NCBI GenBank assembly: GCA_037440925.1
Contig: JBBITF010000006.1
Span: 1 to 64,000, forward strand
Origin: Chloroflexota bacterium
GTDB lineage: Bacteria; Chloroflexota; Anaerolineae; Anaerolineales; Villigracilaceae
Length of the DNA stretch: 64,000 nt
Direction: 5' to 3'
Part shown: piece after piece, positions 32,676 to 52,349 of the stretch
Layout: each line of letters starts with the position of its first letter
Numbering within the stretch: position 1 is the stretch's first letter
Translations under genes and position numbers: made by a program
Notes under the pieces: generated by a model
Databases searched by the model: none
What the model saw: only the letters and a program-made list of their open reading frames with translations
Told to the model about the DNA's origin: nothing

Positions 32676-33422
32676 ATGAGCACAAGCGATATTTTGTGGA
32701 CCCTGCTTTCCCTCTTTTTCATTGGTCTGGCTTATTTTGCAGCCTTTTCTTTCGTGGCAGGTTTGCTGTGGAAATTCTACGGTTACTTGCGCACTCCCAT
32801 GCCTTTACCTCATGCTGTGACACCTGCTCCTAAGACAGAAGGGGGAGCCGTCTTACGCGTGTTAGGAGATGTCACCCTCTTCTCCAACCTGTTCAAAGCC
32901 GATAAATGGTTGTGGGGAGGTGCGTGGCTCTTCCATGTTGCCTTGGCTGCGGTTTTATTCCGTCACTTGCGTTATTTTACTTACCCCGTGCCTGGACTGG
33001 TCCTATACATGGAATCGGTGGCGCTATTCTTTGGCAGTTTGCTGGGGGCGGCTGCCTTGTTCCTGTTTTGGCGGCGGCTGGCTTTGCCGCGCACACTCTA
33101 TATTTCTAATATCCCCGATTATTTTGCCCTGGCTTTGTTGGGCGTGATTGCCGGCAGTGGCCTGATGGTGAATTACTGGTTGCGCGTCAATATCGTAGAT
33201 GTCAAAGGCTTTATTTTGGGATTGATGACTTTCCATCCTGTCGAAGTACCTCATCATCCCTTGTTCCTCTTGCATTTACTGGCCGTCCTGATTTTGATGA
33301 TTTACTTCCCTTTCAGCAAGTTGCTCCATGCAGGCGGTCTGATTTTCAGCCCCTCGCGTCATCAGCCTTTTCAGGTGCAGGTGCGCGGCAAGCGTTATAT
33401 CAATCCAGTTGACCGTTATTGA
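32676..33422 (+). CDS. dsrM: DsrM (NarI-like diheme b membrane subunit)
   Basis: 248 aa, 5-6 TM. Conserved His in TM helices (FHVALAAVLFRHL; HHPLFLLHLL). Position and size match DsrM/HdrE. Confidence 0.8.
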   Translation: MSTSDILWTLLSLFFIGLAYFAAFSFVAGLLWKFYGYLRTPMPLPHAVTPAPKTEGGAVLRVLGDVTLFSNLFKADKWLWGGAWLFHVALAAVLFRHLRYFTYPVPGLVLYMESVALFFGSLLGAAALFLFWRRLALPRTLYISNIPDYFALALLGVIAGSGLMVNYWLRVNIVDVKGFILGLMTFHPVEVPHHPLFLLHLLAVLILMIYFPFSKLLHAGGLIFSPSRHQPFQVQVRGKRYINPVDRY

Positions 33423-33433
33423 GAGAATAACCT

Positions 33434-34879
33434 ATGTCGAAATTCGATGAGACTCCGATTGTCAAAGACCCGGCAGTAAATGGCGTCTTGCGCCCGCCCA
33501 AACTCCGCGAACACGCTTCGGCAGAGGTGCAGTGTTATCCGAGCAAGCCCAAAGATACTTCGGCCATTGATTTGCCGACCGAATTGGTGCCGGATTGGAA
33601 AGAGCGTGCCATTGCCAGATTGGGCGAGTTGTTGGAAAAGAACCAGGCCTTGCGCGTCTACATGGACATCTGTGTGCGCTGCGGCGCCTGCACCGACAAA
33701 TGCCAGTTCTTCCTGGGGACGGGCGACCCGCAGAACTTCCCGGTGGCGCGCGCGGAACTGCTGCGAAAAGTCTATCGCCGCTACTTTACGCCGGCCGGTC
33801 TCTTCCCAGACCTGGGAGAGGCCGCCGATTTAGACGAAGAGATGCTCCAGAAGTGGTACACCTACTTCTACCAATGCTCCGAATGCCGCCGCTGTTCGGT
33901 CTTTTGCCCGTATGGCATAGATACTGCCGAAATTACCATTGCCGCGCGCGAGATCATGGCCTCGATTGGTGTCTCGACCAAATACATCACGGAAGTTGTG
34001 GCAAAGGTCTATGCTACTGGCAACAATCTGGGCATTCCGCCGGCTGCCTGGAAGGACAACTGCGAATTTCTCGAAGAGGATGTGCAGGCGGATACCGGCC
34101 TGCCTATCCGCTTCCCAGTCGATGAGAAAGGCGCCGAAGTTCTGCTGGTGCCGCCCTCGGCCGATAACTTTGCCAATACTGACACCATGATTGGCTATGG
34201 CAAACTCTTCCATTTCTTGGGCGTCAGTTGGACAACCAGCACCTACTGTAATGAAGGCGGTAACTTTGGCCTGTTCTTGAATTTTGCCAACTTGAAAAAA
34301 GTCAACCGCCGCATTCTGGATGCCGCCCGCGAATTGGGCGTCAAGACCATTATCTGGGGTGAGTGTGGACATGCCTGGCGGGCAGGCATTATGACGCCTT
34401 CGCTCAATGGCCCGATGGATGATTTCGATCCGCCTTATCCGTACCATATTAGCCAGTATATCGTTGACATGCTGCACAAAGGCGCTTTCGAGGGCCACAT
34501 AGACAAGTCGGCCAATGACCAGTATCTTGTCACCTATCATGACCCGTGCAATTCTGCGCGCGCGGGCTACCTCATCGAAGAACCGCGTGAGATCATCCGC
34601 GCCGTTTGTAACCGCTTTGTCGAAATGCCAGAAGGCACCATCCGCGAAAAGACTTTTTGCTGCGGCGCAGGCAACGGCCTGTTGACGGATGAGATTATGC
34701 CCATCCGCATGGCGGGCGGCAAACCGCGCGCCATGGCCGTCAAGCACACCGGCGCCAATTACCTGGCCACTGTATGTGCAATTTGCAAGGCGCAATTGCC
34801 CGAATCCATGCACTATTGGCAGGTGCCGGTCAAGGTGGGTGGCGTGATTGACTTGCTGGCGAACGCTCTCAAATTCTAG
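33434..34879 (+). CDS. dsrK: DsrK (HdrD-like CCG-domain Fe-S protein)
   Basis: Two ferredoxin Cys clusters (CVRCGACTDKC; CSECRRCSVFCP). Two CCG motifs (YHDPC...CCGAGNG). Confidence 0.85.
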   Translation: MSKFDETPIVKDPAVNGVLRPPKLREHASAEVQCYPSKPKDTSAIDLPTELVPDWKERAIARLGELLEKNQALRVYMDICVRCGACTDKCQFFLGTGDPQNFPVARAELLRKVYRRYFTPAGLFPDLGEAADLDEEMLQKWYTYFYQCSECRRCSVFCPYGIDTAEITIAAREIMASIGVSTKYITEVVAKVYATGNNLGIPPAAWKDNCEFLEEDVQADTGLPIRFPVDEKGAEVLLVPPSADNFANTDTMIGYGKLFHFLGVSWTTSTYCNEGGNFGLFLNFANLKKVNRRILDAARELGVKTIIWGECGHAWRAGIMTPSLNGPMDDFDPPYPYHISQYIVDMLHKGAFEGHIDKSANDQYLVTYHDPCNSARAGYLIEEPREIIRAVCNRFVEMPEGTIREKTFCCGAGNGLLTDEIMPIRMAGGKPRAMAVKHTGANYLATVCAICKAQLPESMHYWQVPVKVGGVIDLLANALKF

Positions 34880-34894
34880 CCCTTGGAGACAGCC

Positions 34895-35197
34895 ATGCGC
34901 AAAGTAGCCTTGTCTCTCGTTGTATTCGGAATTCTGCTCTTGACGGTCCTCTTTTATCCGCGCTATGTGGAGAAACCCGTCAAGGACGGTGAAGGGCCGT
35001 TGGCGATTTACCTTGACCCCAGCCTGCCGGCGCCTGAATATCACAGCCCCTTAGACTGGTGGAAACGGAATCACAAGACGATCGTCAATCGCGGCGACCT
35101 GGACAGGCGCGATTGCCTGCAATGCCATGACCCGGCCACCTCTTGCAACAATTGTCACGCTTATGTGGGCGCGGCTGAGATTGTCGTTGCCCCCTAA
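34895..35197 (+). CDS. Membrane-anchored diheme cytochrome c
   Basis: ATG 34895 (GGAGA RBS). N-terminal TM anchor. Two CxxCH motifs (CLQCH, CNNCH). 100 aa. Confidence 0.65.
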   Translation: MRKVALSLVVFGILLLTVLFYPRYVEKPVKDGEGPLAIYLDPSLPAPEYHSPLDWWKRNHKTIVNRGDLDRRDCLQCHDPATSCNNCHAYVGAAEIVVAP

Positions 35198-35659
35198 ATG
35201 GTGAGCGCTATGACGGATACTTCTGTTTCCTCTCCTAAACCTTCCATTTTCTCCCGCCGCCGCCAGTTTATTCAACTGGGCTTCTTGACGGTGGCAGCCG
35301 CCTGGCTGGGAACATGGCTGCAAGCGCGTCTCTTCCCGGCCGCCAGCGCCAGCCAGGAAGCTGCGCCGGTCTCTTTTCCATTGAGCGACTTGCCGGTTGG
35401 CGGAGCCAAAGCCATTACGTATGGCGGCATTCCTGTATTGGTATTGCGCACCCCGCAGAGTCTCCGCGCCTTCTCGTTGATTTGCACGCACCTGGGCTGT
35501 ATTGTGGAATGGCAAGATAACAAGAAGGAATTTTATTGCCCTTGTCACGATGGCCGCTATGATGAATTTGGCGATGTGTTGGCCGGCCCCCCGCCCATTC
35601 CGTTGGAGCAATTTGCCGTGCGCATCGAGGGCGAACAAGTCATCGTCGGCGAGGCTTGA
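35198..35659 (+). CDS. TAT-exported Rieske [2Fe-2S] protein
   Basis: Twin-arginine motif SRRRQFIQ. Rieske boxes CTHLGC and CPCHDG. TAAATG overlap with upstream gene. Confidence 0.8.
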   Translation: MVSAMTDTSVSSPKPSIFSRRRQFIQLGFLTVAAAWLGTWLQARLFPAASASQEAAPVSFPLSDLPVGGAKAITYGGIPVLVLRTPQSLRAFSLICTHLGCIVEWQDNKKEFYCPCHDGRYDEFGDVLAGPPPIPLEQFAVRIEGEQVIVGEA

Positions 35660-35674
35660 GGCAGGAGAATGAAC

Positions 35675-36049
35675 ATGAAACGTTTTCTAATTTTCTTCGG
35701 TTCACTGCTTGTGACTGTGGCGTTGCTGTTGGCCCTCTTGCCCGCTGCTACGGCCCAAGCCCTTCCCGAATATTCAGCGCAGACCGGGGAACCCTGCGCC
35801 TCTTGTCACATCAGCCCCTCGGGCGGCGGCCCCCGCGGCCCGCGCGGGCAGGCCTGGGTAGCCTCCGGCAAACCCGGCGCCGTGCCGGATACGCTCCAGG
35901 CGCTCGAATTGCTGGGCGTCGAATTGAGCGTGGATCCGGCCTATTTTACGGCAACAGGTTTCGAGGTCCAGGAACCGGAAGCGCTGCAGGTCGCTCCGGC
36001 CCAGAGCGTGCGCTTGTACCGTTGGTTGAGTCAATATGATGGCAATTAG
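35675..36049 (+). CDS. Secreted monoheme cytochrome c
   Basis: Signal peptide and a single CASCH motif. ATG 35675 preferred over 35669 because of AGGAGA RBS spacing. Confidence 0.65.
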   Translation: MKRFLIFFGSLLVTVALLLALLPAATAQALPEYSAQTGEPCASCHISPSGGGPRGPRGQAWVASGKPGAVPDTLQALELLGVELSVDPAYFTATGFEVQEPEALQVAPAQSVRLYRWLSQYDGN

Positions 36050-36080
36050 TCGTCGTGCGTTGATCGGTAAAGGATAGCCT

Positions 36081-38450
36081 ATGGAAAACTTCCCCTCTCA
36101 GACTCCTCCCTCAGAACTTTCCCGTCGTGATTTCATCAAATTTGGCGCCGCTGCCGCCATCGCCGGCGTTGGACTGAACGCTTTGCAGCCAGCGCAGCAG
36201 GCTACCTCGGTGCAAGCGGCGGTGGGTGAAGAGACGATTGTTAAAACGACATGCGCCTTGTGCCCCTCAGGCTGCGGCCTGGATGTGCGCGTGGTGAACG
36301 GCAAGGCGGTGAAAGTGGAAGGCAACCCGCTGCACCCGCTCAACCAGGGCGTATGCTGCCTGCGGGGACAGACCTCGTTGGAGGTGCTGTATAGCCCAGA
36401 GCGCATCCAACGCCCGCGCGTCCAGATGGGCGAGCGCGGTTCGGGCGATTGGAAAGAAATCTCGTGGGACGAGGCGCTTGAACTGGCGGCTGGCAAACTC
36501 GGTGAACTGCGCGCCGCTGGAAAGCCTCATAGCGTTGCGCTCATGCATGGCGAACTGCGCGGGCAAATGCGCCAGACGGTGCAGCGTTTCATGCGCGCCT
36601 ATGGCTCGCCGAATGTCATTTCGCGCGAGAGTTTGGGCGAAGGCGCGGCCCGTATGGCTTTATGGCTTTCACAAGGCGTAAACGCGCTGCCGGTCTACGA
36701 CATCAACAACGCCAATTATGTGTTGACCTTTGGGGGCAACCTGCTCGAATCCAGCCGCAACTTGATTGGCTATCTGGGCGCGACGGCTTTCATGCGGCGC
36801 GGACGCCCACAGCGCGGCAAACTGGTGGCCGTCCACCCGCGCCTTTCTCTGACCGGCATCAAGGCCGACGAGTGGGTGCCAATCCGCCCTGGCACGTATG
36901 GCGCGCTGGCTTTGGGCATGGCCAATGTCATCATCAACAGCAAACTATATGACGAAGCCTTCGTGCGCGACTTTACCTTTGGCTTCGAGGATTTCGAGGA
37001 CGCCGAGGGGACGTTGCACAAAGGCTTCAAGTCGCTGGTGTTGGAAACCTATACCCTCGAGCGCGTCTCGGCTATTACGGGCGTCTCTACCGATAAGATT
37101 GCCCGCATTGCGGGCGAATTTGCCACCAACCGCCCGGCGGTCGCCATGCTGCCCACCGAGGCGGGCGAACTCTCTAGCGGCAATGCGCTGTACACGGCGC
37201 TGGCCGTCCATGCCTTGAATGCCCTGGTTGGCTCGATAGACGTCAAGGGCGGCGTCCTCTTGCAGCGCTTCCCTAAATTGGCCGACTGGCCTGACTACAC
37301 CCTCGATGCGACAGCCCGCCTGGGAGAAAGCCGCGAGCGCATAGACGGGGCCGGCTCCCAATTCCCCTTGGCGCTATCGGCCTATCAGAATGTGCCAGAG
37401 CGCATCCTGGAGGGCAAGCCTTACCCCATCGAGGCCCTCTTCTTGCTGAACGCCAACCCGCTCTACGACCTGCCCAATGGCGGGCGTACCCTGGAAGCCT
37501 TGCAAAAAGTACCTTTTGTGGTCAGTTTTGCCTCCACCCTCGACGAAAGCGCGGCCTATGCCGACCTGATTTTGCCGGCCAGCACCTTCCTAGAAGTGTG
37601 GGGCGACGATTACCTGGAAGGCACGGGCTATGCGGGCATCTCCCTGCGCCAGCCGGCTGTTGCGCCGCTCCACGATACGCGCAATCCCGGCGACGTGCTG
37701 CTCGACCTGGCGCACCGCATCGGAGGTAATCTGGCAAAAGCCTTCCCCTGGGAAACCTACCAAGACCTGATCATGCAGCGCCTGTCTACCCTGGATTGGG
37801 AGAAATTGCAGGCCAACGGCAACTGGTCCGAACTGGTCTATTTCAACGCCCAACCCGGCAGCCCCGCCTGGAGCGAGGTGGTCGGACGTGACCGCTTGAA
37901 CGCTCCCAAAGATGGACGCTTCGACTTCTTCTCGCGCGAACTCTTCGCCCTGCTCGCTTCGGACTCGGACTTGGCCTGCTTGCCCCACTTCGAGATTCCC
38001 CCCGCCCTGGCCGACACTGCCGAGGGCGCCCTCGACTATCCTTTCCTGCTGGTCGTACAGCCGCTCATCACCCAGTCGCAGCAATGGCAAGGCATCGTCC
38101 CCACCTTGCAGGAGAGTTACGGCTTGCAAGGGCATGTCAAGTGGGACAGTTGGGTAGAAATCAGCCAGAAGGCAGCCGAAGCCCTCCACCTCGAGGATGG
38201 GCAGCGCGTGTGGGTAGAATCGCCGCTCGACCGCGTGCAGGCCACCGTTAGGGTATATGCTGGCATCTGGCCGAATGCCGTCTTCCTGCCGCCTGGACAG
38301 GGCCATCACACCTTTGTGCGCTGGGGCCGCAAATCTGAGCAGAACATGGTCGTCGGCGCCAACCCGAATGTTCTGAGTTTGTTTACGAGCGAGCCGTTGA
38401 GCGGACTGGCCGTAGCCGGCCCCACCCGCGTCCGTATTTATCCGGTTTGA
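36081..38450 (+). CDS. Molybdopterin (Mo-bisPGD) oxidoreductase catalytic subunit, PsrA/PhsA/TtrA-like, TAT-exported
   Basis: RRDFIKFGAAAA twin-arginine signal. FS0 [4Fe-4S] motif CALCPSGC...GVCCLRG. 789 aa, domain order typical of CISM A subunits. Confidence 0.8.
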   Translation: MENFPSQTPPSELSRRDFIKFGAAAAIAGVGLNALQPAQQATSVQAAVGEETIVKTTCALCPSGCGLDVRVVNGKAVKVEGNPLHPLNQGVCCLRGQTSLEVLYSPERIQRPRVQMGERGSGDWKEISWDEALELAAGKLGELRAAGKPHSVALMHGELRGQMRQTVQRFMRAYGSPNVISRESLGEGAARMALWLSQGVNALPVYDINNANYVLTFGGNLLESSRNLIGYLGATAFMRRGRPQRGKLVAVHPRLSLTGIKADEWVPIRPGTYGALALGMANVIINSKLYDEAFVRDFTFGFEDFEDAEGTLHKGFKSLVLETYTLERVSAITGVSTDKIARIAGEFATNRPAVAMLPTEAGELSSGNALYTALAVHALNALVGSIDVKGGVLLQRFPKLADWPDYTLDATARLGESRERIDGAGSQFPLALSAYQNVPERILEGKPYPIEALFLLNANPLYDLPNGGRTLEALQKVPFVVSFASTLDESAAYADLILPASTFLEVWGDDYLEGTGYAGISLRQPAVAPLHDTRNPGDVLLDLAHRIGGNLAKAFPWETYQDLIMQRLSTLDWEKLQANGNWSELVYFNAQPGSPAWSEVVGRDRLNAPKDGRFDFFSRELFALLASDSDLACLPHFEIPPALADTAEGALDYPFLLVVQPLITQSQQWQGIVPTLQESYGLQGHVKWDSWVEISQKAAEALHLEDGQRVWVESPLDRVQATVRVYAGIWPNAVFLPPGQGHHTFVRWGRKSEQNMVVGANPNVLSLFTSEPLSGLAVAGPTRVRIYPV

Positions 38451-38477
38451 TTGGAATTTTATATTTGGAGGTAGAAC

Positions 38478-39164
38478 ATGCCCCGCTGGGGAATGGTCAT
38501 TGACCTGGACAAATGCTTTGCCTGCCAGAGCTGCACCGCAGCCTGCCGCATGGAAAACAACACGCCTGTGGCCGGAAAGAACCAGGCCGATATGGGGCGC
38601 GCCATCCTGTGGAACGAGGTCTTGCCGTTCATAGAAGGCGAGTATCCCAATATCCACACCACCATGTTGCCGCGCCCGTGTATGCACTGCGACAACCCAC
38701 CCTGCGTTAAAGTCTGCCCGGTGCAGGCGACTTACAAAAACGAAGAAGGCATCGTGCTGGTGAACTACGATCGCTGTATTGGCTGCCGCATGTGCACTGT
38801 GGCTTGCCCTTATGCCGTGCGTTACTTCAACTGGTACCCCCCCGAATGGCCCGAGGAACTGAAAGCGCACTTGAATCCAGAACCGGAAGTGCAGCCTCGT
38901 CCTAAAGGCGTGGTCGAAAAATGTACCTTCTGCTTCCAGCGTTTGCGCAAAGCGCGTGAAGAAGCCGATGCAGAAGGTCGTCCTTTCAACGCCACTGACT
39001 ACACCCCTGCCTGCGTGCAAACCTGCACCGGCCACGCCCGCTACTTTGGCGACCTGGATGACCCGAACAGCCTGGTCTCTAAACTGGCGCATAGCCCGCG
39101 CGCCTTCCGTATGTTCGAAGAACTTGGCACACAGCCCAAAGTCTATTACTTGAAGCAAGGGTGA
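38478..39164 (+). CDS. 4x[4Fe-4S] ferredoxin-type electron-transfer subunit (PsrB/DsrO/NrfC-like)
   Basis: Four Cys clusters (CFACQSCTAAC; CMHCDNPPCVKVCP; CIGCRMCTVACP; CTFCFQR...CVQTC). No own signal peptide, consistent with TAT hitch-hiking on the A subunit. Confidence 0.8.
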   Translation: MPRWGMVIDLDKCFACQSCTAACRMENNTPVAGKNQADMGRAILWNEVLPFIEGEYPNIHTTMLPRPCMHCDNPPCVKVCPVQATYKNEEGIVLVNYDRCIGCRMCTVACPYAVRYFNWYPPEWPEELKAHLNPEPEVQPRPKGVVEKCTFCFQRLRKAREEADAEGRPFNATDYTPACVQTCTGHARYFGDLDDPNSLVSKLAHSPRAFRMFEELGTQPKVYYLKQG

Positions 39165-39168
39165 TGAT

Positions 39169-40497
39169 ATGGAACCCAAGAATCAAAACGTACAGCAAAT
39201 CCTTGCTCCCGTGCGCCGCGTTTCGGCTGGCGATTACCTGCTGTGGGGCGTCTTGCTTGCCTTGTTGTTGACCGGCCTGGGCGCCTGGACGTGGCAATTC
39301 ATCGAGGGCTTGGGCATCACCGGCATGAACCGCCCGGTCTATTGGGGCGTATACATTACCAACTTCGTTTTCTTCATCGGCCTGGCGCATTCCGGCACCT
39401 TCATCTCGGCCATCTTGCGCATCGCCGGGCAGAGTTGGCGCGCCCCGCTCACCCGCGCTGCCGAAGCCATCACGCTTTTCAGCCTGCCCTTCGGTGCTGG
39501 CTCCATCATTATTGATATGGGGCACCCCGAGCGCATCCTCAATGTCATTTTCTATGGACGTTACCAGTCGCCCATCCTGTGGGATGTGACAGCCGTCAGC
39601 CTGTATATGCTCTCCAGCATCATCTTCTTCTACTTCTCGCTCATCCCCGACATTGCGATTTGCCGCGACCGCCTCACCGACGCTCCGCGCTGGCAGCGCC
39701 GCATGTACCAAATCCTGGCTCTGGGTTGGAAGCACCATCCTGAGCAATATCGCCGTCTGGAAAAAGTGCTGGATGGTATGGCCGTTTTCATGACCATGTT
39801 GGTCGTCACCGTTCACACTGTGGTTTCCTGGCTGTTTGGCATGACCGTCCAACCTGGCTGGCATACCGCCTTGATCGGGCCGTTCTTCCTGTTGGGCGCC
39901 ATCCTATCGGGAACGGCGGCGGTGGTGATCACCTTGGCCATCCTGCGCAAGGTCTATCATCTGGAAAATGTCTTGCATGTCGGCCTGTTCAACTCTTTGC
40001 GCAAACTGTTGATTACCTTTGTCCTGGGCTGGCTGTACATGATGATCGCCGAGCATCTCACCATTGGTTATAGCAGCATGACCGAAGAGATGGTCGTCCT
40101 CAACGACAAATTCAGCGGCACCTTCTCGTTGATTTTCTGGAGCATGGCTACCTTCGTGTTTGGTCTTCCTTTGCTCATCTTCCTCTTCAAAGGCAAGAAC
40201 AATATCGGTTGGATGGTGTTTGCCTGTGTCCTCATCAATATTGGCATGTGGCTGGAGCGTTACATTGTCATCATCCCTACCGAGGTTAGCCCGCGCATGT
40301 TGCATGTCATGGGACAGGGACACTACCTCCCCCAACTGCCTGAAATCCTCATCACGATTGCCTGTTTCGCTGGCCTCATCCTGCTCTACGCGGTCTTTAC
40401 TCGTTTCTTCCCCATTGTTCCCATCTGGGAGACGGCTCAGGAACTGCCCGGCCACGCGCATTCTCAGCCGGCTCCGGCAGCCGCAGCCAGCGATTAG
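39169..40497 (+). CDS. NrfD/PsrC-family polytopic membrane quinone-interacting subunit
   Basis: 442 aa with about 10 TM helices, NrfD-like (DsrP/PsrC/ActC) organisation. 4-nt gap after the FeS gene. Confidence 0.75.
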   Translation: MEPKNQNVQQILAPVRRVSAGDYLLWGVLLALLLTGLGAWTWQFIEGLGITGMNRPVYWGVYITNFVFFIGLAHSGTFISAILRIAGQSWRAPLTRAAEAITLFSLPFGAGSIIIDMGHPERILNVIFYGRYQSPILWDVTAVSLYMLSSIIFFYFSLIPDIAICRDRLTDAPRWQRRMYQILALGWKHHPEQYRRLEKVLDGMAVFMTMLVVTVHTVVSWLFGMTVQPGWHTALIGPFFLLGAILSGTAAVVITLAILRKVYHLENVLHVGLFNSLRKLLITFVLGWLYMMIAEHLTIGYSSMTEEMVVLNDKFSGTFSLIFWSMATFVFGLPLLIFLFKGKNNIGWMVFACVLINIGMWLERYIVIIPTEVSPRMLHVMGQGHYLPQLPEILITIACFAGLILLYAVFTRFFPIVPIWETAQELPGHAHSQPAPAAAASD

Positions 40498-40515
40498 CCC
40501 CTTCAGGAGGTTGAC

Positions 40516-40704
40516 ATGAACATTGGCGGTTTGGTTCACGCATATTTCGACAATGCCGGCCCGGGCGGAGTCTTTGTCTTGCTGGTTGTCGGCGTTGCCT
40601 GCACTACCTACTACCTCCTGGCCCGCTGGTTCGTAGCCGGCGGTAGAACAGAGAGCCAGGCAGTTCCTTCTACCGATGAACAACCTGTGAGCATGGACGA
40701 ATGA
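40516..40704 (+). CDS. Small single-TM membrane protein
   Basis: 62 aa. ATGA overlap with the downstream gene. Hydrophobic core GVFVLLVVGVACTTYYLLA. Confidence 0.4.
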   Translation: MNIGGLVHAYFDNAGPGGVFVLLVVGVACTTYYLLARWFVAGGRTESQAVPSTDEQPVSMDE

Positions 40705-42791
40705 AACGACGAATTCTGCTTCCCTCCCTGGTCTTCCTGGCGGTCCTGACGCTGGCCGTCGGCTCCGTCTCCGCTTCCTCCCTCGACTTCAGCCTGCCTG
40801 CCTCGGCCGAAGGAGAGACTCTCGTCTCCGGCAATTACTGCGCCTCCTGTCATCTGACCGATGACCCGCGCCTGGCGTCTGCCACGGCTTGGAAAGGCGG
40901 CATCCAAAGCAAAGTCAACTCGCCCTGCCCGGCAGCCATCAAAATACACGAAGAACTATATTACACCGAACGGTTGCTGCTCATGATCGAACGCGCCGAA
41001 AACGCAGTTGGCCCCTTGCCCGAAAAGAGCCAGGCTCGTTTGGAGGACTATACCCAGCGTTACAGCCGTATGCTCGATACGCCTGTCGGCAGCCTGGACG
41101 CTTTCGTCAGTGAAGCCCAGTCAACTCGTTATCAGTTGAACAAGGCCTATGCTGCGCTCAATCAAATGGCGCAAGACGCCAAACAGCGCACAATCTTGAC
41201 GTATGCGGCGGCGATTACCTTGATTGTGCTTGGCTCATTGGCCTGGGGCGTGTACAACTCCCGCGCGCTGGCCTCTGGAAAGGTGAGCCGATCTTGGGGG
41301 CTATTCTGGCGTGTGCTGTTTATCGTGGCTGTTGTGGCGTTCTTTACCTTGCCTTTCTTCCGTGTGCCGGCCGAAGAGGTGGTGATGACCACTGCCGAAC
41401 AGCAGGAAGCCCAGGCAACCCTCGATGCCGCTCAACGCGCAGCCGACGCTGCCGACCGTTCGCAGGCGCGCGCCTGGATGTTAGCCCGCGTTGCGGCTGC
41501 CTATGCCGAAATGGACGCCGCCCAAGCCCAGGCTATCCTGGATGAAGCGCTGACCTCGCTCGACGTAGCCCGCAAGAACGAAGAAGCCCTGTGGGGGCAA
41601 AGCCTGGTCGTGCAAGAAGTGACGGTTGGCACCAAAATCGAAATGGAATCGGCCGGCCTCATCACCGCCGACCTGAACGCTGCCCGCGCCCGCGCCTGGG
41701 CCTTGCCGCTGGTTGCCCGGCAGTGGAACGCCCTCGATCCAATCAAAGCCGCCGCCCTCTTACAGGCCGAACAGGACGCCCTGATTGGCCAAGAAGGCCT
41801 CTACCGTGATTTACAATTGCGCGCCCTATCGCTGGCCTGGGTCGAAGTGAATCCTTCCAAGGCCGCCCCTGCTGCCGCCCAAATACAGGACGCTTCCCTG
41901 CGCGCCTGGACCTTCCGTGAACTGGCGGACCTGACCCACAACCCCTCACTCTATGACAAAGCCCTCCAGGCTGCGCGTGAAATCACGGACCCTGTCCAGA
42001 AAGCGCGCGCCCTGCGAGAGATTGCCCACTCTTCTGGCAAGAGCGCCCTTTTCGAGGAAGCCCTGACCGCGCTAGATGGCGTGACCGACCCCGCTTTGGC
42101 CTATGCCCTCAGCGACCTGGCCGCTGCCTGGGGCAACGCTTCTCTGGTCGAAAGAATCGCCTACCCCGATGCCCGCGCCAGCGCCTTGCTGCGCATGGGA
42201 GAATACCCCTCCGCTTGGGAGGCGGCGGCAGGCATCGCTGATCCTTACGAACAGGCGCGCGCCCAAGCCGCCATTGCTTCTGCCTGGGGCAATGCCGATG
42301 CCGCCATGCAGATTGCTGTCCCCTTATACCGCGATTTGGCATTGCGCGATGTCATCCGAAAAACGGGAAATACGTCACTGGCAGAGGCAATTACCTCCAA
42401 GTACTATAAAGTCCAGGCTCTAACTGCTCTAGGCGAGACCGAATCTGCCCTCCAAGTAGCCGCCGACCTGGGCGAAACCTACCCCTTGGTTGATTTGGCT
42501 GTCCATTTGTCCGCCTCCAATCCGCAGGCGGCGTTGGCCTTGGTCGAGCAGATGAAGCGCGAAAGCGACAAAGCCATTGCCTTGCAGGCTATTGCTGTTG
42601 CCTCGCAGGACCCGTCGCTCATCGAACAGGCGCAGGGCATGGCACTGGCCGCCCGCGTGCGCGGCGACTCGCTGGCCCCGGCCCAGGCTTTGCTCGATCT
42701 TGCAAATGCCCTTCTGGAAGTAGATGTCAAATACGCAGAAGCAGCCTTTCGTCAGGCGTATGAAGCGGCGCAGCGCATTGCAACCAAATGA
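40701..42791 (+). CDS. Monoheme cytochrome c fused to two TM helices and a ~450-aa Ala-rich alpha-helical repeat domain
   Basis: Signal peptide. CASCH heme motif at residues 48-52. TM helices near residues 175-230. Then about 31-aa repeats (…DP..QKARALREIAHS…; …DPALAYALSDLAAAWGN…; …DPYEQARAQAAIASAWGN…). Confidence 0.6.
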   Translation: MKRRILLPSLVFLAVLTLAVGSVSASSLDFSLPASAEGETLVSGNYCASCHLTDDPRLASATAWKGGIQSKVNSPCPAAIKIHEELYYTERLLLMIERAENAVGPLPEKSQARLEDYTQRYSRMLDTPVGSLDAFVSEAQSTRYQLNKAYAALNQMAQDAKQRTILTYAAAITLIVLGSLAWGVYNSRALASGKVSRSWGLFWRVLFIVAVVAFFTLPFFRVPAEEVVMTTAEQQEAQATLDAAQRAADAADRSQARAWMLARVAAAYAEMDAAQAQAILDEALTSLDVARKNEEALWGQSLVVQEVTVGTKIEMESAGLITADLNAARARAWALPLVARQWNALDPIKAAALLQAEQDALIGQEGLYRDLQLRALSLAWVEVNPSKAAPAAAQIQDASLRAWTFRELADLTHNPSLYDKALQAAREITDPVQKARALREIAHSSGKSALFEEALTALDGVTDPALAYALSDLAAAWGNASLVERIAYPDARASALLRMGEYPSAWEAAAGIADPYEQARAQAAIASAWGNADAAMQIAVPLYRDLALRDVIRKTGNTSLAEAITSKYYKVQALTALGETESALQVAADLGETYPLVDLAVHLSASNPQAALALVEQMKRESDKAIALQAIAVASQDPSLIEQAQGMALAARVRGDSLAPAQALLDLANALLEVDVKYAEAAFRQAYEAAQRIATK

Positions 42792-43463: not shown

Positions 43464-44888
43464 ATGACTGCTCGAACCCGTCATGCGCCTCGTCTGGTCA
43501 TTGCGGCGCCCCAGGGTCGAAGTGGAAAAACCACCCTGACCTTGGGATTGTGCGCCGCATTCAAAGCGCGCGCGCTGACCATCCAGCCCTACAAAAAAGG
43601 ACCCGATTACATTGATCCCTCCTGGCTGAGTGAAGCCGCTGGAACCCTCTGCCGTTCCCTAGACCCTTTCTTTTACGAAAAGCCCGAAGAACTCTTACGG
43701 GCTTTTCTGCGCTCTGCTCCTCAAGATGGGGTGAGCCTGATCGAAGGCAATCACGGCTTGTTTGACTCCTTCGATGAAAGCGGACGAGGTAGCACGGCTG
43801 CGGTTGCGCGCACGTTGCAGGCTCCCCTCCTGTTGGTGATCAATGCCGCCCGCATGGGGCGCAGCGCCGCGGCCATCGTGCATGGCTGTCAAACCTTCGA
43901 GCCAGAAACGAACATCGCCGGCGTGGTTCTGAACAACGTAGCGCAAGGTCGCCACGAGGCCCGTATGCGCCAGGCCATTGAAAGTCGCTGCGGTGTGCCT
44001 GTATTGGGCGCCATTCCACGCGACGAAACCCTGACCATCCCCGACCGTCACCTGGGATTGGTGCCTCGCGCCGAACAAGACGCGCTTCTTCCCGCCATCA
44101 CAGCCTGCCGGCAGACTATCGAGCGCTACCTCGACCTCGATGCTGTCCTGGCTATAGCCCGGGCTGCGCCTGCTTTACCCGCTCCCTCTCCGGCCTCCTC
44201 CGCGGCCCAGCCGGTCTCGCATCGGCCGCTCATCGGCGTCCTGCGCGACCGTGCCTTTACCTTCTACTACCCTGAAAATTTAGAAGCCCTGGAAGAAGCC
44301 GGTGCCGACCTGCTCTTCCTGGACGCTTTGCGTGACGCCGAATTGCCCCCTGTAGACGCCCTCTACATCGGCGGCGGCTTCCCCGAAATATTCATGGACG
44401 AGTTGTCTGCCAACGTTTCTCTGCGCCGCGCCATCCGCGAAGCCATCGAAAACGACTTGCCGGTCTACGCCGAATGCGGCGGCCTGATGTACCTCTCCCA
44501 GCGCATTGTGTGGGGCGAAAAATCGGCCGAGATGGTGGGCGCCTTGCCCTGCGAAATCGAAATGACCTCCAAACCCCAGGGACATGGCTACGTAACTGCC
44601 CAGGTGGAGGCCGAGAATCCTTTTTTCTCGCCGGGCCTGCTCTTGCGTGGACATGAGTTCCACAACTCGCGGCTTGTAATGCTCCCTGGCAACCGCCTTG
44701 CAACGGCTTATCGCCTCTTGCGCGGCAATGGAGTAGGCGATGGCCGCGATGGGCTTCTTTACCGTAACACATTGGCTTCTTACACTCATTTGCATTCTGG
44801 CGGAGCGCCTGACTGGGCCGTTGGCCTGGTTCATCGGGCGCAGGTTTATCGAGAAAACCGCCTACAAGCAGAAATGGATAACAGATGA
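43464..44888 (+). CDS. dsrN: DsrN (cobyrinic acid a,c-diamide synthase homologue; siroheme amidase)
   Basis: CbiA/CobB architecture with N-terminal P-loop (APQGRSGKTT) and C-terminal glutamine amidotransferase domain (YAECGGLMYL). Located in the dsr locus. Confidence 0.75.
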   Translation: MTARTRHAPRLVIAAPQGRSGKTTLTLGLCAAFKARALTIQPYKKGPDYIDPSWLSEAAGTLCRSLDPFFYEKPEELLRAFLRSAPQDGVSLIEGNHGLFDSFDESGRGSTAAVARTLQAPLLLVINAARMGRSAAAIVHGCQTFEPETNIAGVVLNNVAQGRHEARMRQAIESRCGVPVLGAIPRDETLTIPDRHLGLVPRAEQDALLPAITACRQTIERYLDLDAVLAIARAAPALPAPSPASSAAQPVSHRPLIGVLRDRAFTFYYPENLEALEEAGADLLFLDALRDAELPPVDALYIGGGFPEIFMDELSANVSLRRAIREAIENDLPVYAECGGLMYLSQRIVWGEKSAEMVGALPCEIEMTSKPQGHGYVTAQVEAENPFFSPGLLLRGHEFHNSRLVMLPGNRLATAYRLLRGNGVGDGRDGLLYRNTLASYTHLHSGGAPDWAVGLVHRAQVYRENRLQAEMDNR

Positions 44889-46015
44889 GGCTGCCTCTCC
44901 TTTCCAATATTGGTAATTTTTTCCCAAAATTGCGCTCGAAACCGGATGTCCAGGCCTCCAAAAAACGGCCGTTTAACGTCGTGCAAATCGAAATCACCAG
45001 TCGCTGCAGCACCGGCTGTGTCTTCTGCCCGCATGATGCTTTGTCTGACAAATGGATAGACGGGGACCTGTCGCCGCTCATGTATGAAGAATATATCGTC
45101 CCGCATCTGGATTTGTTCGATTTGGTGTACCTGCAAGGCTGGGGCGAACCTATGCTGCACCCCAACCTGTGGGATATGCTGGCCTCGGCTCAAGACAAGG
45201 GTTGCCGCACCGGCTTCACCACCAACGGCGCCTGGCTGCAAAGCGAACAAAATCAGCGTCTGGTAGAGATGGGTGTGGATATGATTTCCGTCTCTTTTGC
45301 CGGGACGGCTGCTCCCATTCACGAATCGCTGCGTACCAATTCTCAGTTTGCCGAACTGTGTAGCAATTTCGAGAGCCTGGCCAACCTCAAGAAACAACGC
45401 GGCGTGACCAAACCCTGGCTCGAATTGCATTTCCTGATGACCCGCGCCAATTTGAAAGAATTCCCTGGCCTGGTCGAACTGGCTGCCTCCCTAGGCGCGG
45501 ATGAAGTAGTCGCCACCAACCTCACCTATTCCCCGAGCCTGGCGCTAGACCGGATGCACATCTTTGGCGAACAGCCTCTGCCTGAAGATGTCGAACTGAT
45601 TCAGCGCGCCCAAGCCAACGCTGAACGGCTGAACATTCCGCTGCGCGTTTACCCGCTCCAAACCGAACCCAATACCCTGGTCTGTGACGCTGACCCGCTC
45701 AATACCGTGTACGTCAACCATCGCGGCGAGGTCTCCCCTTGTGTCTATCTGGGGCTAACAGTGCAGGGAAGGGTTCCGCGCTTCTATCAGGGCGAAGCTC
45801 ACCCATTTGACGCCCTTTCCTTTGGAAATATTCAGACAGGTTTCTTGAAGGCGCTTCATGGAAAAGAGCGCGAGACCTTCCTGTCTGCTTTCAAACAACG
45901 CAATATGACCAGCGGCCCTCTGGCGATGCTTACCTACATGTCCGAACCAGGCCAGGCTGAATTGCCGCCTCCGCCTGTCCCTTGTCAGCATTGCTACAAA
46001 ATGTTGGGCGTGTGA
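44885..46015 (+). CDS. Radical SAM protein with C-terminal SPASM/twitch-like Cys cluster (AhbC/AhbD/NirJ-like)
   Basis: CxxxCxxC (CSTGCVFC). GGE-like GWGEP motif. C-terminal cysteines (CVYLG...CQHCYK). ATGA overlap with dsrN stop. Confidence 0.65.
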   Translation: MRLPLLSNIGNFFPKLRSKPDVQASKKRPFNVVQIEITSRCSTGCVFCPHDALSDKWIDGDLSPLMYEEYIVPHLDLFDLVYLQGWGEPMLHPNLWDMLASAQDKGCRTGFTTNGAWLQSEQNQRLVEMGVDMISVSFAGTAAPIHESLRTNSQFAELCSNFESLANLKKQRGVTKPWLELHFLMTRANLKEFPGLVELAASLGADEVVATNLTYSPSLALDRMHIFGEQPLPEDVELIQRAQANAERLNIPLRVYPLQTEPNTLVCDADPLNTVYVNHRGEVSPCVYLGLTVQGRVPRFYQGEAHPFDALSFGNIQTGFLKALHGKERETFLSAFKQRNMTSGPLAMLTYMSEPGQAELPPPPVPCQHCYKMLGV

Positions 46016-50820: not shown

Positions 50821-50821
50821 G

Positions 50822-52314: not shown

Positions 52315-52349
52315 ATCGAAAAGAGCCTCCTACTCATTAAAGTTGGATA

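Follow-up and report, generated by a model that had tools for sequence, protein, structure and literature searches.

Uncultured Anaerolineae (Chloroflexota) with genes for sulfite reduction have a conserved set of eight genes in place of dsrJOP. It encodes a molybdopterin-oxidoreductase-like protein (MoL), an FeS protein, a quinone-binding NrfD protein, a Rieske protein, a small transmembrane (TM) protein and, in all, four c-type hemes. The set probably connects sulfite respiration to the quinone pool by a new route, and no description of it was found in the literature searched. We put the chances at about even (roughly 50%) that it is a functional substitute for DsrJOP, in which electrons would pass from menaquinol through FeS clusters, the Rieske protein and c-type hemes to DsrM, DsrK and finally DsrC.

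Gene order and conservation

The window, the whole stretch of 64,000 nucleotides that was analysed, carries the eight genes on its plus strand, directly 3' of dsrABDC-dsrMK. An earlier note on this DNA had described seven tightly packed ORFs after dsrK, at the usual site of dsrJOP. All seven are present there and co-oriented, with gaps of 4-31 nt between them and with the TAAATG and ATGA junctions that the note had given. The seven do not, however, make up the complete set, since an eighth gene (40701..42791), syntenic and joined by an ATGA overlap, had been overlooked. Within the module, no terminator-like intergenic site was detected on the plus strand, where the scan did not exceed the shuffled expectation.

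A comparison of gene neighbourhoods in relatives, which the note had suggested as a check, bore out the linkage: the order of the module after dsrK is identical in 47 of 59 species-representative Anaerolineae genomes; at the other 12 loci, contig ends or N-runs cut the sequence short. Given this dsrK-linked order, the arrangement is far beyond chance. The module always lies between dsrK and dsrE/dsrN, its heme, Rieske and FeS ligands are invariant across 49-56 orthologs, and no dsrJOP homologs occur in these dsr operons, to which the search was confined. Downstream of the module lie a DsrE-like gene and a radical-SAM gene that weakly resembles a maturase of W-cofactor enzymes (125 bits; cut-off 380). 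An Hmc-like complex is also encoded in the window (49015-53726).

Subunits of the module

The first gene, c2h (34895..35197, plus strand), encodes a membrane-anchored dihaem cytochrome c with two CXXCH motifs. Its ATG at 34895 is conserved in 47 of 49 orthologs, and a TTG at 34883 is also open. The protein has a single N-terminal TM helix (residues 8-26), and CLQCH, CNNCH, H54 and H64 are invariant in the 49 orthologs, which suggests two bis-His hemes; it has no match among Pfam, NCBIfam or PDB sequences. The Rieske 2Fe-2S protein (35198 or 35210..35659, plus strand) has a twin-arginine signal and the boxes CTHLGC..CPCH, with C96, H98, C101, C114, C116 and H117 invariant in 52 orthologs. It scores 49 bits with Pfam Rieske. 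Its top NCBIfam models are the bc1 and b6f Rieske proteins (67-70 bits, all under their cut-offs), AioB gives 33 bits, the top PDB match is 8hn2_A (80 bits), and it shares 49% identity over 71 aa with the Rieske protein of a true Rieske/cytochrome b cluster in contig L086. The third gene, c1h (35669..36049, plus strand), encodes a periplasmic monohaem cytochrome c with a signal peptide and one CXXCH (CASCH). The mature N-terminus, LPEYS..TGE.C..CH.SPSGGG.R, is invariant, and no conserved His or Met that might act as distal ligand is present in the orthologs.

The eighth gene, here called 'big' (40701..42791, plus strand), encodes a 696-aa protein with a signal peptide, a monohaem c domain, two TM helices and a periplasmic alpha-solenoid, and is syntenic at every locus whose contig extends that far. 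Of 52 orthologs, 51-52 keep C47, C50, H51 and a lone C76, and no His or Met is conserved among them. Its named homologs, among only 233 found, are labelled hypothetical, and the few labelled with an organism come nearly all from Anaerolineales/Chloroflexota. The AF2 model has a pLDDT of 80, and Foldseek retrieved only generic helical repeats with a TM-score of at most 0.25 by query length. Homology to DsrJ was undetectable for c2h, c1h and 'big'.

The FeS subunit (38478..39164, plus strand) is a four-cluster protein without a signal peptide of its own, and all 16 of its Cys are invariant in 55 orthologs. Its motif III reads CIGCRMC against CIGTRYC in ActB, and therefore lacks the 3Fe-4S signature; motif IV has the long insertion of the ActB type. 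It reaches 267 bits with QrcC (cut-off 400), 192 with DsrO (cut-off 200) and, in the PDB, 190 with ActB2. The membrane subunit (39169..40497, plus strand) is a quinone-interacting member of the NrfD family with about 10 TM helices (Pfam NrfD 104 bits; ActC in the PDB 217 bits; DsrP 108 bits, cut-off 350). No PsrC hit appeared in the PDB search and no QrcD match was reported by the NCBIfam search. In its predicted quinol pocket, W59, F66, D116, W138, D139 and V219 do not vary among 53 orthologs, which include both NrfD variants; Asp116 occupies the position of ActC His139. It is followed by sTM (40516..40704, plus strand), a small protein with one TM helix. A small ORF with the pattern D.(A/P)G.G ... 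Y..L.RW lies 3' of the NrfD gene at all 10 inspected loci, again with both NrfD variants.

MoL (36081..38450, plus strand; 789 aa) had been taken for a TAT-exported Mo-bisPGD catalytic subunit that keeps its FS0 cysteines. Export and FS0 held up: the TAT signal is kept, at 22.6 bits marginally below the 22.7 cut-off, C58, C61, C65 and C92/C93 are invariant, and K/R95 is retained. The catalytic assignment did not. Position 186, aligned to the Mo-ligating Cys of PsrA (C173) and ArrA (C193), is G, A, N or D. In a comparison set of 12 Cys-bearing relatives among the 138 nearest cluster representatives, D105, D273, G360 and R669 track the ligand Cys, as does D252 in 9 of the 12; MoL has S, Y, E, W and H at these positions. 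Four of the five replacements (H252, Y273, E360, W669) are invariant and mostly bulky, at positions where D, D, G and R prevail in the Cys-bearing relatives. Because the ligand position is variable and these four residues replace conserved ones, MoL is probably a non-catalytic scaffold with an FS0 relay, and probably lacks the Mo-bisPGD cofactor. The residues that we take to form the substrate site of ArrA are likewise not conserved in the MoL alignment. MoL nevertheless retains 82% of the columns conserved in the Cys-bearing relatives, together with Pfam Molybdopterin (121 bits), Molybdop_Fe4S4 and Molydop_binding (40 bits), and a weak alignment of domain IV with ArrA persists. Model scores are 336 for PhsA (cut-off 694), 293 for QrcB (440), 274 for ArrA (1600) and 27 for AioA, and PDB scores 241 bits for ArrA, 207 for PsrA and about 81 for ActB/ActB1. 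Of the two outcomes that the note had named as speaking against its proposal, loss of cofactor-binding residues was thus largely observed, but clustering inside ActB1 or QrcB was not (QrcB 293, below 440; ActB1 about 81).

The core c1h-MoL-FeS-NrfD-sTM is also present without dsr genes in the nearest outgroup contigs (L063-L066), an occurrence outside dsr operons that the earlier note had missed. The c1h homolog there lies directly 5' of the Mo-like gene (58% identity over 55 aa, E 5e-21), and sTM matches its counterpart in L063 with E 7e-5 in a pairwise comparison. In this outgroup the core is simply fused or adjacent to cytochromes. In L063 it adjoins other cytochromes and a candidate substrate enzyme is absent, which fits a quinone:cytochrome c electron-transfer module.

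A possible substitute for DsrJOP

In A. fulgidus, the solved path runs from the DsrP quinol site through four [4Fe-4S] clusters of DsrO and the DsrJ hemes (two bis-His and one His/Cys) to DsrM and DsrK. Like the module, DsrJOP of the DsrMKJOP complexes of A. fulgidus, Desulfovibrio and Allochromatium occupies the operon position after dsrMK. Both combine a periplasmic FeS protein of four clusters, a cofactor-free NrfD protein that has 10 TM helices and an Asp in its periplasmic quinol site, and a membrane-anchored bis-His cytochrome c, with a further heme that has a Cys ligand (a candidate one in the module). Asp107 of DsrP has been reported in a preprint where ActC has the conserved His. By this analogy, the two likely share the task of passing electrons from menaquinol to DsrM, DsrK and DsrC. 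They differ in that the module FeS protein has no TAT signal of its own and would be carried by the additional Mo-like subunit with FS0, in that the module hemes are divided among three unrelated proteins (2+1+1), none of which resembles DsrJ in sequence, and in the presence of the Rieske protein, sTM and the solenoid protein. The DsrO and DsrP cut-offs are not reached.

The partners on the DsrMK side are encoded immediately upstream. DsrM (32676..33422, plus strand), a NarI-type dihaem cytochrome b and the proposed membrane partner of the module, scores 142 bits with NCBIfam cytob_DsrM, below the cut-off of 300; DsrK (33434..34879, plus strand), the catalytic CCG-domain FeS subunit, scores 526.5 bits, above its cut-off of 400. 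An invariant DsrM motif, FRH(L/F)RYFTYPVPG, aligns to VGHFFG of E. coli NarI. In DsrM-2, two arginines block the quinol site (bioRxiv 10.64898/2026.08.25.746951), and the motif appears to fit this signature. With RH(L/F)R in place of GHFFG, the quinol site of DsrM itself may be blocked, and a periplasmic donor would therefore be needed.

On this basis, the eight genes would form a periplasm-facing, membrane-anchored electron-transfer complex that couples the menaquinone pool to DsrMK, with which we infer a physical association. Electrons would enter the four [4Fe-4S] clusters of the FeS subunit, which would be co-exported by TAT together with MoL; MoL, its Mo-bisPGD site probably lost, would serve as scaffold and export carrier, with FS0 as an extra relay. 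The c1h heme in the periplasm, the Rieske 2Fe-2S cluster, the two bis-His c2h hemes and possibly a His/Cys-type heme of 'big' would follow, listed here in no particular order. The DsrM hemes would then pass electrons to DsrK, and DsrC trisulfide would be reduced in the cytoplasm. The outcome would be a charge-separating redox loop, and electron flow through the same wire could also be reversed.

The substitute reading draws on the strict linkage to dsrK in operons without dsrJOP, the part-for-part analogy with A. fulgidus DsrJOP, the invariant quinol-pocket residues across both NrfD variants, the DsrM motif, the probably non-catalytic alpha subunit, and the fit of the core to a quinone:cytochrome c module. 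Against it, a bc-type Rieske protein with disulfide cysteines is expected to have a potential well above menaquinone and would be an odd relay towards DsrK. FS0 and the K/R that normally bridges FS0 and pterin are retained, leaving room for a cofactor; the Mo-binding domains are still recognisable, and domain IV aligns weakly with ArrA. The core is not specific to Dsr, the Hmc-like complex could be another route, and none of the three cytochromes resembles DsrJ. Of the two functions proposed in the earlier note, the new quinol:cytochrome c/Rieske oxidoreductase, which we take to be wired to DsrMK, is a better fit than the periplasmic sulfur-compound reductase or oxidase.

Other quinone-linked systems and alternative readings

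The mixture of CISM-type alpha, beta and gamma subunits with a Rieske protein and c-type cytochromes had been proposed to match none of the known systems, and this was confirmed: Psr/Phs, Qrc, ACIII and DsrJOP all fall below curated thresholds, and no module subunit reaches those for Psr/Phs, Qrc, DsrOP or Aio. ACIII (ActABCDEF) shares with the module a Mo-like alpha subunit without Mo ligand, the long insertion in beta motif IV, ActC as the best solved match with the pocket residues W, I, F, D and V conserved, and c-type cytochromes as periplasmic partners. As the note had stated, the alpha and beta subunits of the module are separate genes and ActF is absent. ActA (pentahaem), ActD and ActE are missing as well; FS0 is kept, unlike in the cofactor-free ActB1; ActC His139 and Asp253 correspond to Asp and Leu; and the module has a Rieske protein and is linked to dsr. 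Its quinone-proximal cluster retains the fourth Cys and therefore has no [3Fe-4S] signature, unlike ACIII.

An independent or reversible ACIII-like quinol:cytochrome c/Rieske oxidoreductase, carrying electrons from the quinone pool or an oxidative DsrMK through the Rieske protein and c-type hemes to high-potential acceptors such as O2 or nitrate, is an unlikely alternative. It would allow these Anaerolineae to use the dsr operon for sulfur-compound oxidation, disproportionation or microaerobic respiration. ActB2 and ActC are the closest solved structures to the FeS and NrfD subunits, the Rieske protein is of bc type and nearest to those of true Rieske/cytochrome b clusters, and the core occurs without dsr. 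In L074, L086, L070 and L071, related MoL-FeS-NrfD modules have Rieske/cytochrome b complexes and class I cytochromes as neighbours, and downstream of the module described here lies a DsrE-like gene. Chloroflexi Dsr systems have been described as chimeric, their DsrMK and DsrN forming a sister group to the oxidative type (Neukirchen et al.), and 'Ca. Desulfolinea nitratireducens' (L006) is reported to occur in suboxic water and to possess nitrate reductases and terminal oxidases. However, DsrD is present in the operon, DsrAB of these organisms is treated as the reductive type in surveys, the four-Cys cluster differs from the high-potential ACIII [3Fe-4S] at +140 mV, and the operon lacks ActA, ActD, ActE and ActF as well as oxidase genes. 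The constant placement from dsrK to dsrE/dsrN argues for a Dsr-specific role.

QrcABCD, the menaquinone reductase of Desulfobacterota, also acts in sulfate or sulfite respirers and also has separate Mo-like, FeS and NrfD genes with a cytochrome c. QrcC is the top NCBIfam model for the FeS subunit and QrcB the second for MoL, but none of the scores reaches its cut-off, and no QrcD match was reported for the NrfD subunit. QrcB has been described as lacking cofactors (PMC6303296), whereas the FS0 cysteines of the module are invariant; hexahaem QrcA is absent and a Rieske protein is added.

PsrABC, PhsABC and ArrABC are closest in sequence to MoL; like the module, they are exported by TAT, have FS0 and carry four 4-Cys motifs in the beta subunit. 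In the module, the Mo-ligand Cys and its accompanying positions are altered, the membrane subunit belongs to the 10-TM ActC/DsrP type and not the 8-TM PsrC type, and there are cytochromes and a Rieske protein in addition. In arsenite oxidase, Mo has no protein ligand, and the Mo subunit is paired with a Rieske subunit. To our knowledge, AioAB is the only well-known pairing of a ligand-less large subunit of the Mo-bisPGD family with a TAT-exported Rieske protein. Its FS0 is 3Fe-4S, it has no beta or gamma subunits, and its Rieske subunit is thought to sit where other family members have their beta subunit.

With this precedent, MoL might be a genuine periplasmic Mo/W enzyme that binds Mo/W-bisPGD either with no protein ligand or through a carboxylate, for example that of the nearly invariant E187. 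It would reduce or oxidise a sulfur compound, with polysulfide, thiosulfate, tetrathionate and sulfite among the candidates, while Rieske and cytochrome c serve as its electron partners and NrfD connects it to quinone. That PhsA, ArrA and PsrA outscore ActB1, that FS0, the K/R past its fourth Cys, the Mo-binding domains and most conserved columns are kept, and that a maturase-like gene lies downstream are all consistent with it. We consider it improbable, since the ligand position is unconserved within the family, the ligand-tracking residues and presumed ArrA substrate-site residues are lost, AioA and AioB scores (27 and 33 bits) indicate no family relationship, the beta and gamma subunits group with the non-catalytic ACIII, Qrc and Dsr systems, and the outgroup core merely joins cytochromes.

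The Rieske protein resembles those of bc1/b6f in both cluster-binding boxes, the disulfide cysteines and the best-scoring models. Its domain is minimal (about 95 residues), the operon has no bc-type cytochrome b or subunit IV, and its sole b-type cytochrome is DsrM. Rieske-assisted bifurcation, in which a Qo-like NrfD pocket would send one electron to the Rieske and c-type heme branch and the other through the low-potential 4x[4Fe-4S] chain and FS0 to DsrM and DsrK, a bc1-like mechanism in a cofactor-free NrfD protein, is highly improbable, being drawn from architecture only and with no high-potential sink evident under sulfate-reducing conditions. In its favour, the module encodes two types of primary acceptor, a bc-type Rieske protein and an all-[4Fe-4S] chain, the electron wires of ACIII already split at the quinone-proximal cluster, and bifurcation from quinone by DsrMKJOP has been considered in earlier work.

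Gene order and conservation of the operon

The dsr operon of the window lies on the + strand. Directly upstream of dsrA is a gene for a YeiH-family (Cons_hypoth698) putative sulfate/sulfite exporter (28497-29612), and dsrA, dsrB, dsrD and dsrC occupy the interval between it and dsrM (32676-33422), which is followed by dsrK (33434-34879; 526 bits on the NCBIfam DsrK model, above its cut-off). Behind dsrK we find eight co-oriented genes, spaced by 4-31 nt or overlapping. They encode a dihaem cytochrome c with a TM anchor and 2 CXXCH (c2h, 34895-35197); a Rieske protein with an RR signal and the boxes CTHLGC..CPCH (35198/35210-35659); a monohaem cytochrome c with a signal peptide and 1 CXXCH (c1h, 35669-36049); a Mo-like alpha subunit with a TAT signal and the FS0 cysteine motif (MoL, 36081-38450); a four-cluster beta subunit without signal peptide (FeS, 38478-39164); a membrane gamma subunit of ~10 TM helices (NrfD, 39169-40497); a small protein with a single TM helix (sTM, 40516-40704); and a larger protein, here called big, with a signal peptide, a monohaem domain, two TM helices and an Ala-rich helical domain (40701-42791). 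The earlier note had described the first seven as one tightly packed module, and the ORFs, domains and conservation in the window bear out every one of them as a real gene. As a list of the module it was incomplete: big, joined to sTM by an ATGA overlap, belongs to it as well. Downstream of big lie a DsrE-like gene, a ferredoxin gene, dsrN and a radical-SAM gene. A consensus scan found no + strand terminator-like site between the genes of the module, at a level equal to shuffled expectation and so uninformative; the promoter and terminator signal as a whole was no higher than in shuffled sequence.

The conservation of this arrangement was surveyed with one genome per species, yielding 59 loci. 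All come from Anaerolineae/Chloroflexota MAGs, including 'Ca. Desulfolinea nitratireducens' (L006) and an Anaerolineales MAG at 97% identity (L013), except one 2.5-kb fragment labelled Eubacteriales. When the window proteins were mapped onto these loci, a single gene order appeared wherever the contig was long enough: YeiH, dsrABDC, dsrMK, c2h, Rieske, c1h, MoL, FeS, NrfD, (sTM), big, DsrE, ferredoxin, DsrN. The dsr genes stand directly upstream of the module in 47 of the 59 loci; in the remaining 12 a contig end or, for L034, a series of N-runs interrupts the locus, so that synteny with dsrMK holds in 47/47 informative loci. L034, a MAG 'chromosome', was considered as a dsr-less exception and rejected because of the N-runs in its upstream region. 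Two independent homolog look-ups (69% and 82% identity) returned the same gene calls. Across 49-56 orthologs there is no variation in any CXXCH motif, in the ligands of the Rieske cluster, in the FS0 cysteines or in the 16 cysteines of FeS, and this ligand conservation validates the small ORFs.

The surroundings of the module are more varied. Where a locus extends far enough, the YeiH gene is almost always immediately 5' of dsrA, and it looks like part of the dsr operon of the clade. The radical SAM/SPASM gene after dsrN (44885-46015) scores highest on the model of a 'tungsten cofactor oxidoreductase radical SAM maturase' (125 bits, cut-off 380) and on one for a putative metalloenzyme maturase, and less well on AhbD and AhbC; elsewhere among the loci its position is either downstream, or upstream and in the opposite orientation, unless hemA takes its place. 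In many relatives the interval between big and dsrE contains a second gene of the DsrK type (17092-19107 in the locus L002, where a preceding 213-aa gene may encode a second DsrM-like partner), and the window has no such pair there. The MAG that contains locus L007 holds a second, partial MoL copy on another contig (L057, JBMOMN010000017.1; residues 349-786, 79% identity), with no module neighbours.

Subunits and their predicted cofactors

By sequence, catalytic enzymes are the nearest relatives of MoL. Its best NCBIfam models are PhsA (336, cut-off 694), QrcB (293, cut-off 440) and ArrA (274), all scoring far under their cut-offs; among PDB entries it matches ArrA with 241 bits and PsrA with 207, and ActB with only ~81. 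JGI annotation names it an 'anaerobic selenocysteine-containing dehydrogenase'. The Mo-ligand Cys of ArrA (SSVCAEAHK) and PsrA (SLCTAP; Cys173) nevertheless aligns, gap-free, to a Gly in the MoL stretch ESLGEGAAR. This position varies between G, A, N and D within the family, next to the invariant S184 and L185, and the FS0 cysteines C58, C61, C65 and C92/C93 are invariant.

A search of 1.8 billion cluster representatives showed that the MoL family collapses to about one 50% cluster. Among its 138 nearest full-length neighbours (P0241-P0390; ~32-51% identity), almost all keep the FS0 cysteines and only 12 have the ligand Cys. In these 12 relatives D105 and G360 are invariant, D273 and R669 occur in 11 and D252, of the DPR motif, in 9; the family of the window has S105, H252, Y273, E360 and W669 instead, the last four invariant in an alignment of MoL with 20 close homologs. 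Bulky residues in place of small or charged ones, at positions that track the ligand Cys, are the pattern expected if the cofactor cavity has been filled in. Loss of Mo-bisPGD is therefore likely, and MoL has probably become a scaffold without it. An AF2 model built from the same alignment (pLDDT 51, pTM 0.41) was too poor for inspection of the pterin cavity and was set aside. Since 10/10 neighbours tested fall under the curated cut-offs of QrcB, PhsA and ArrA, the MoL family is placed within a large unnamed radiation, a very large one of apparently ligand-less, Psr-like proteins. In many of the 138 representatives, E/E replaces the D/D of the DPR and PGTD motifs.

FeS scores best on the QrcC model (267 bits, cut-off 400) and then on DsrO (192, a near miss at a cut-off of 200). 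Its nearest solved structure is the B2 domain of ActB from Alternative Complex III (ACIII; 190 bits), with which it has a long motif IV insertion in common. Its motif III reads CIGCRMC, as in PsrB/ArrB, where four ActB structures have CIGTRYC, the signature of a [3Fe-4S] cluster. Cys103 is invariant, as are all 16 of the 16 cysteines, so that four [4Fe-4S] clusters are expected in this protein.

The PDB matches of NrfD are the ActC subunits of four ACIII structures, at 182-217 bits (217 to 6f0k_C), and PsrC (2vpw_C) gave no match at E<=1e-3. About 10 hydrophobic segments are present, and residues 30-427 align to the 10-TM ActC. The DsrP model gives a partial match (108 bits, cut-off 350); for QrcD no match was reported at E<=0.01 in the NCBIfam search, and that model matches the other NrfD gene of the window with 128 bits. 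The quinol-pocket residues of R. marinus ActC (PMC5928083), W82, I86, F89, D169 and V250, map in the alignment to W59, I63, F66, D139 and V219 of NrfD; four of these five are invariant in 53 orthologs, and I63 is I or L. ActC His139 corresponds to the invariant Asp116 and ActC Asp253 to a Leu. According to the DsrMKJOP cryo-EM preprint, a conserved His of ActC corresponds in DsrP to Asp107, which is strictly conserved; if Asp116 and Asp107 occupy the same position, the NrfD pocket would be DsrP-like.

NrfD falls into two lineages, one 69-96% identical to that of the window and the other only 38-45%, in genomes where MoL and FeS still retain 59-93%. Loci L009, L011, L017, L019, L020, L027, L030, L034, L036, L037, L042, L045, L047-L050, L052, L056 and L060 stand on one side of this split and the other loci on the other. 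In the loci inspected the type of sTM changes along with that of NrfD (MAHWFFDTPxIGS... versus MNIGGLVHAYFDNAGPGG...), which suggests that the membrane pair was replaced or has evolved faster.

The Rieske protein consists of a bc-type domain of minimal size that includes the disulfide cysteines, and both its CTHLGC and CPCH boxes are wholly invariant. It scores highest on the bc1 and b6f models (67-70 bits) and finds its top PDB match in 8hn2_A (80 bits), with AioB at only 33 bits. The residue after CPCH-DG-R is mostly Phe, and Gly takes the place of the Ser of high-potential Rieske proteins, suggesting a moderate potential typical of menaquinol systems.

Of the cytochromes, c2h combines an N-terminal TM helix and two CXXCH with two more invariant histidines, H54 and H64, suggestive of two bis-His hemes. 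c1h has one heme, no conserved His/Met and an invariant mature N-terminus (LPEYS..TGE.C..CH.SPSGGG.R). The lack of a conserved intrinsic sixth ligand, in a protein whose predicted mature start (A|LPEYS) is invariant, is reminiscent of cytochrome f with its heme ligation by the N-terminal amino group; a resemblance of c1h to the first heme motif of the 'multiheme cytochrome cf' (PDB 6qvm) is weak and non-significant. We considered the invariant His131 of FeS as a distal ligand of the c1h heme, as DsrO His148 is for DsrJ. This idea stays speculative: among the outgroup contigs described below, the residue is present in L063 and absent from L065, although L065 has c1h. big has one heme, one further invariant Cys (C76) and no conserved His/Met, making a His/Cys-ligated heme plausible. 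Its C-terminal domain is a confident alpha-solenoid (AF2 pLDDT 80), for which Foldseek against the PDB returned only generic TPR/HEAT-like or designed repeats with TM-scores <=0.25 by query length, and so pointed to no function. Lenient scans detected no Pfam domain above cut-off in c2h, c1h, sTM or big; in the PDB sequence search DsrM and c2h had no match and c1h only insignificant ones.

Relatives outside dsr operons and comparison with known families

The nearest out-of-family MoL neighbours were aligned and their contexts collected in a metagenome scan. In the closest outgroup contigs (L063-L066; MoL 46-50% identical), c1h stands directly upstream of MoL. L063 has the full series c1h-MoL-FeS-NrfD-sTM, with c1h fused to a class I cytochrome c domain, and behind the cluster come an SPFH protein and a multihaem cytochrome of 882 aa; L065 has at least c1h-MoL-FeS. 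No dsr gene, Rieske gene or c2h was found in the four contigs. More distant MoL-FeS-NrfD modules (34-37% identity), on metagenome contigs of other lineages, adjoin genuine Rieske/cytochrome b complexes. In L074 (1513-6883) a Rieske protein, a cytochrome b and a five-heme anchored cytochrome precede MoL-FeS-NrfD; in L086 (9878-22029) a cytochrome b6 and a subunit IV lie ~8 kb downstream, with a Rieske protein that shares 49% identity with that of the window; a Rieske-like match is found at a similar distance in L070 and L071. The association of the core with Rieske/cytochrome b may thus be a recurrent functional pairing. The L086 neighbourhood also contains a GltD-like FeS flavoprotein and multi-domain class I cytochromes. 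A kinship of c2h with the ActA-like five-heme cytochrome of L074 was dismissed (E = 0.016 over 39 residues, not significant). Because the core occurs without dsr in the outgroups, we regard it as an independent ACIII/Qrc-like family which an Anaerolineae ancestor took up into its dsr operon along with c2h, big and a Rieske protein of the bc type.

Psr/Phs, Qrc, ACIII, DsrJOP, Aio and the bc complexes were the families considered, and for each of them the tests showed defining features that the module does not have. With PsrABC/PhsABC it shares the FS0 [4Fe-4S] motif and a four-cluster beta subunit, but the conserved Mo-ligand Cys is missing (SLGEGAAR in its place) and the anchor is of the 10-TM type, not the 8-TM PsrC type. 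None of the equivalog cut-offs for QrcB, QrcC and QrcD is reached. QrcB has been called 'cofactor-less' (PMC6303296), whereas the FS0 cysteines of MoL are invariant, and the di- and monohaem cytochromes of the module are unrelated to the membrane-anchored hexahaem QrcA. The likeness to ACIII lies in the ActC-type 10-TM quinol subunit with its conserved W, I, F, D, V pocket. In ACIII, however, ActB fuses B1, which has no cofactors, to B2, and the quinone-proximal cluster is [3Fe-4S]; the module has separate genes (36081-38450 and 38478-39164), keeps FS0 and retains the fourth Cys of that cluster. The pentahaem ActA, ActD, ActE and ActF are absent from the operon, in which there is neither a second NrfD gene nor a pentahaem protein. 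The DsrO and DsrP cut-offs are likewise not reached, and DsrJ, a trihaem protein with one His/Cys heme, has no sequence homolog in the module; analogous content would be provided by the two bis-His hemes of c2h and the heme of big with its lone Cys76, whose ligation is predicted. Membership in AioAB is not indicated by the arsenite_ox_L (27 bits, cut-off 359) and arsenite_ox_S (33, cut-off 96) models. From the Rieske/cytochrome b complexes the module keeps the boxes CxHxGC and CxCH with the disulfide cysteines, but a scan of the 28-46 kb ORFs and of larger flanking ones turned up no gene for a partner cytochrome b of the bc type; the only b-type cytochromes there are the NarI-type DsrM and an HmcE-like protein.

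By analogy, the module would work most like DsrJOP, ACIII and Qrc, the class of CISM-derived quinone-interacting electron-transfer complexes. Full-text searches on Anaerolineae/Chloroflexi dsr genes with Rieske, NrfD and molybdopterin brought up no description of it, and targeted term searches of the leading reviews on how Dsr evolved, on NrfD complexes and on the diversity of SRM returned no mention. Nor did the literature searched describe a Rieske protein joined to a CISM-type module.

A proposed substitute for DsrJOP

Structures of A. fulgidus DsrMKJOP indicate that quinol is oxidised at DsrP, that electrons pass from DsrO via DsrJ and DsrM to DsrK, and that protons are released to the periplasm; in DsrM proteins that partner JOP, their own quinol site is blocked by two arginines (bioRxiv 10.64898/2026.08.25.746951). 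In the DsrM of the window an invariant RH(L/F)R stands at the place of the GHFFG of NarI, consistent with this 'two arginines' DsrM-2 signature as mapped from its description in the text rather than from an alignment. Given this motif and the analogous parts in the same operon position, we propose that the module may be a functional DsrJOP substitute, leading from the NrfD quinol site to the DsrC trisulfide, and put the probability of this reading at roughly one half. Quinol would be oxidised at the NrfD site, and electrons would pass through the four [4Fe-4S] clusters of FeS, then FS0 of the scaffold subunit MoL, then c1h, Rieske and c2h in one order or another, and finally DsrM, DsrK and the DsrC trisulfide. 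The retention of FS0 would follow from a wire that, in this family, runs on across the alpha subunit as far as c1h, the monohaem protein dedicated to it.

Several observations count against this proposal. A Rieske cluster of the expected potential would fit poorly into a relay towards DsrK, and the occurrence of the core without dsr speaks against a dsr-specific role. A further weak point is a second redox cluster of four minus-strand genes, 6 kb downstream (49015-53726), for an Hmc-like transmembrane complex. It encodes a CCG-domain protein of the DsrK/HmcF type (DsrK model 291 bits, cut-off 400), an HmcE/TmcC-like cytochrome b, an HmcB-like FeS protein (243 bits) and an HmcC-like NrfD whose fused C-terminal domain is of the c3 type and carries six CXXCH; as a whole the cluster looks like a compact Hmc or like the cable-bacterial 'DsrOhPhCyt' complexes.

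The module could instead form an ACIII-like or reversible link to high-potential acceptors, or serve an oxidative operation of Dsr. This would accommodate the Rieske protein, the Rieske/cytochrome b neighbours of related modules and the Chloroflexi Dsr system, noted as 'chimeric' (Neukirchen et al.); we hold it to be rather unlikely. Somewhat less likely still is that MoL is a true Mo/W enzyme without a Cys ligand. Counting against cofactor loss, MoL retains 82% of the columns conserved in the Cys-bearing relatives and keeps the K/R after the fourth FS0 cysteine; the bulky replacements at positions that track the ligand Cys argue for such a loss. Quite improbable is a Rieske protein docked at the periplasmic quinol pocket of the cofactor-free NrfD to make a Qo-like bifurcating site, with one electron leaving via Rieske and cytochrome c and the other down the all-[4Fe-4S]/FS0 wire to DsrM and DsrK; if true, this would amount to the reinvention, on a CISM scaffold, of a bc1-type mechanism that drives DsrC-trisulfide reduction or, reversed, serves sulfur oxidation.

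What DsrJOP adds to DsrMK is a standing question in the bioenergetics of sulfate respiration, and a natural replacement built of other parts would be informative. If the module is a DsrJOP substitute, it would mark as indispensable a periplasmic quinol site with an Asp, a four-cluster wire and anchored c-hemes, the rest being replaceable. From its sequences the complex looks intermediate between catalytic Psr/Arr-type molybdoenzymes and the cofactor-less ACIII/Qrc scaffolds: its Mo ligand is gone, FS0 remains, as does the fourth Cys of the proximal cluster, and alpha and beta are unfused, which makes the evolutionary path to ACIII and Qrc testable. There is also a consequence for annotation. 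Since PhsA, QrcB and ArrA are the best models of the alpha subunit, and given its JGI name, automated pipelines may credit these widespread Anaerolineae with thiosulfate, polysulfide or arsenate reduction, which is probably beyond this protein. 'Ca. Desulfolinea nitratireducens' and other MAGs have been credited with psrA/phsA/sreA (PMC8359478), a call that in this clade may derive from the Cys-less MoL of the dsr operon.
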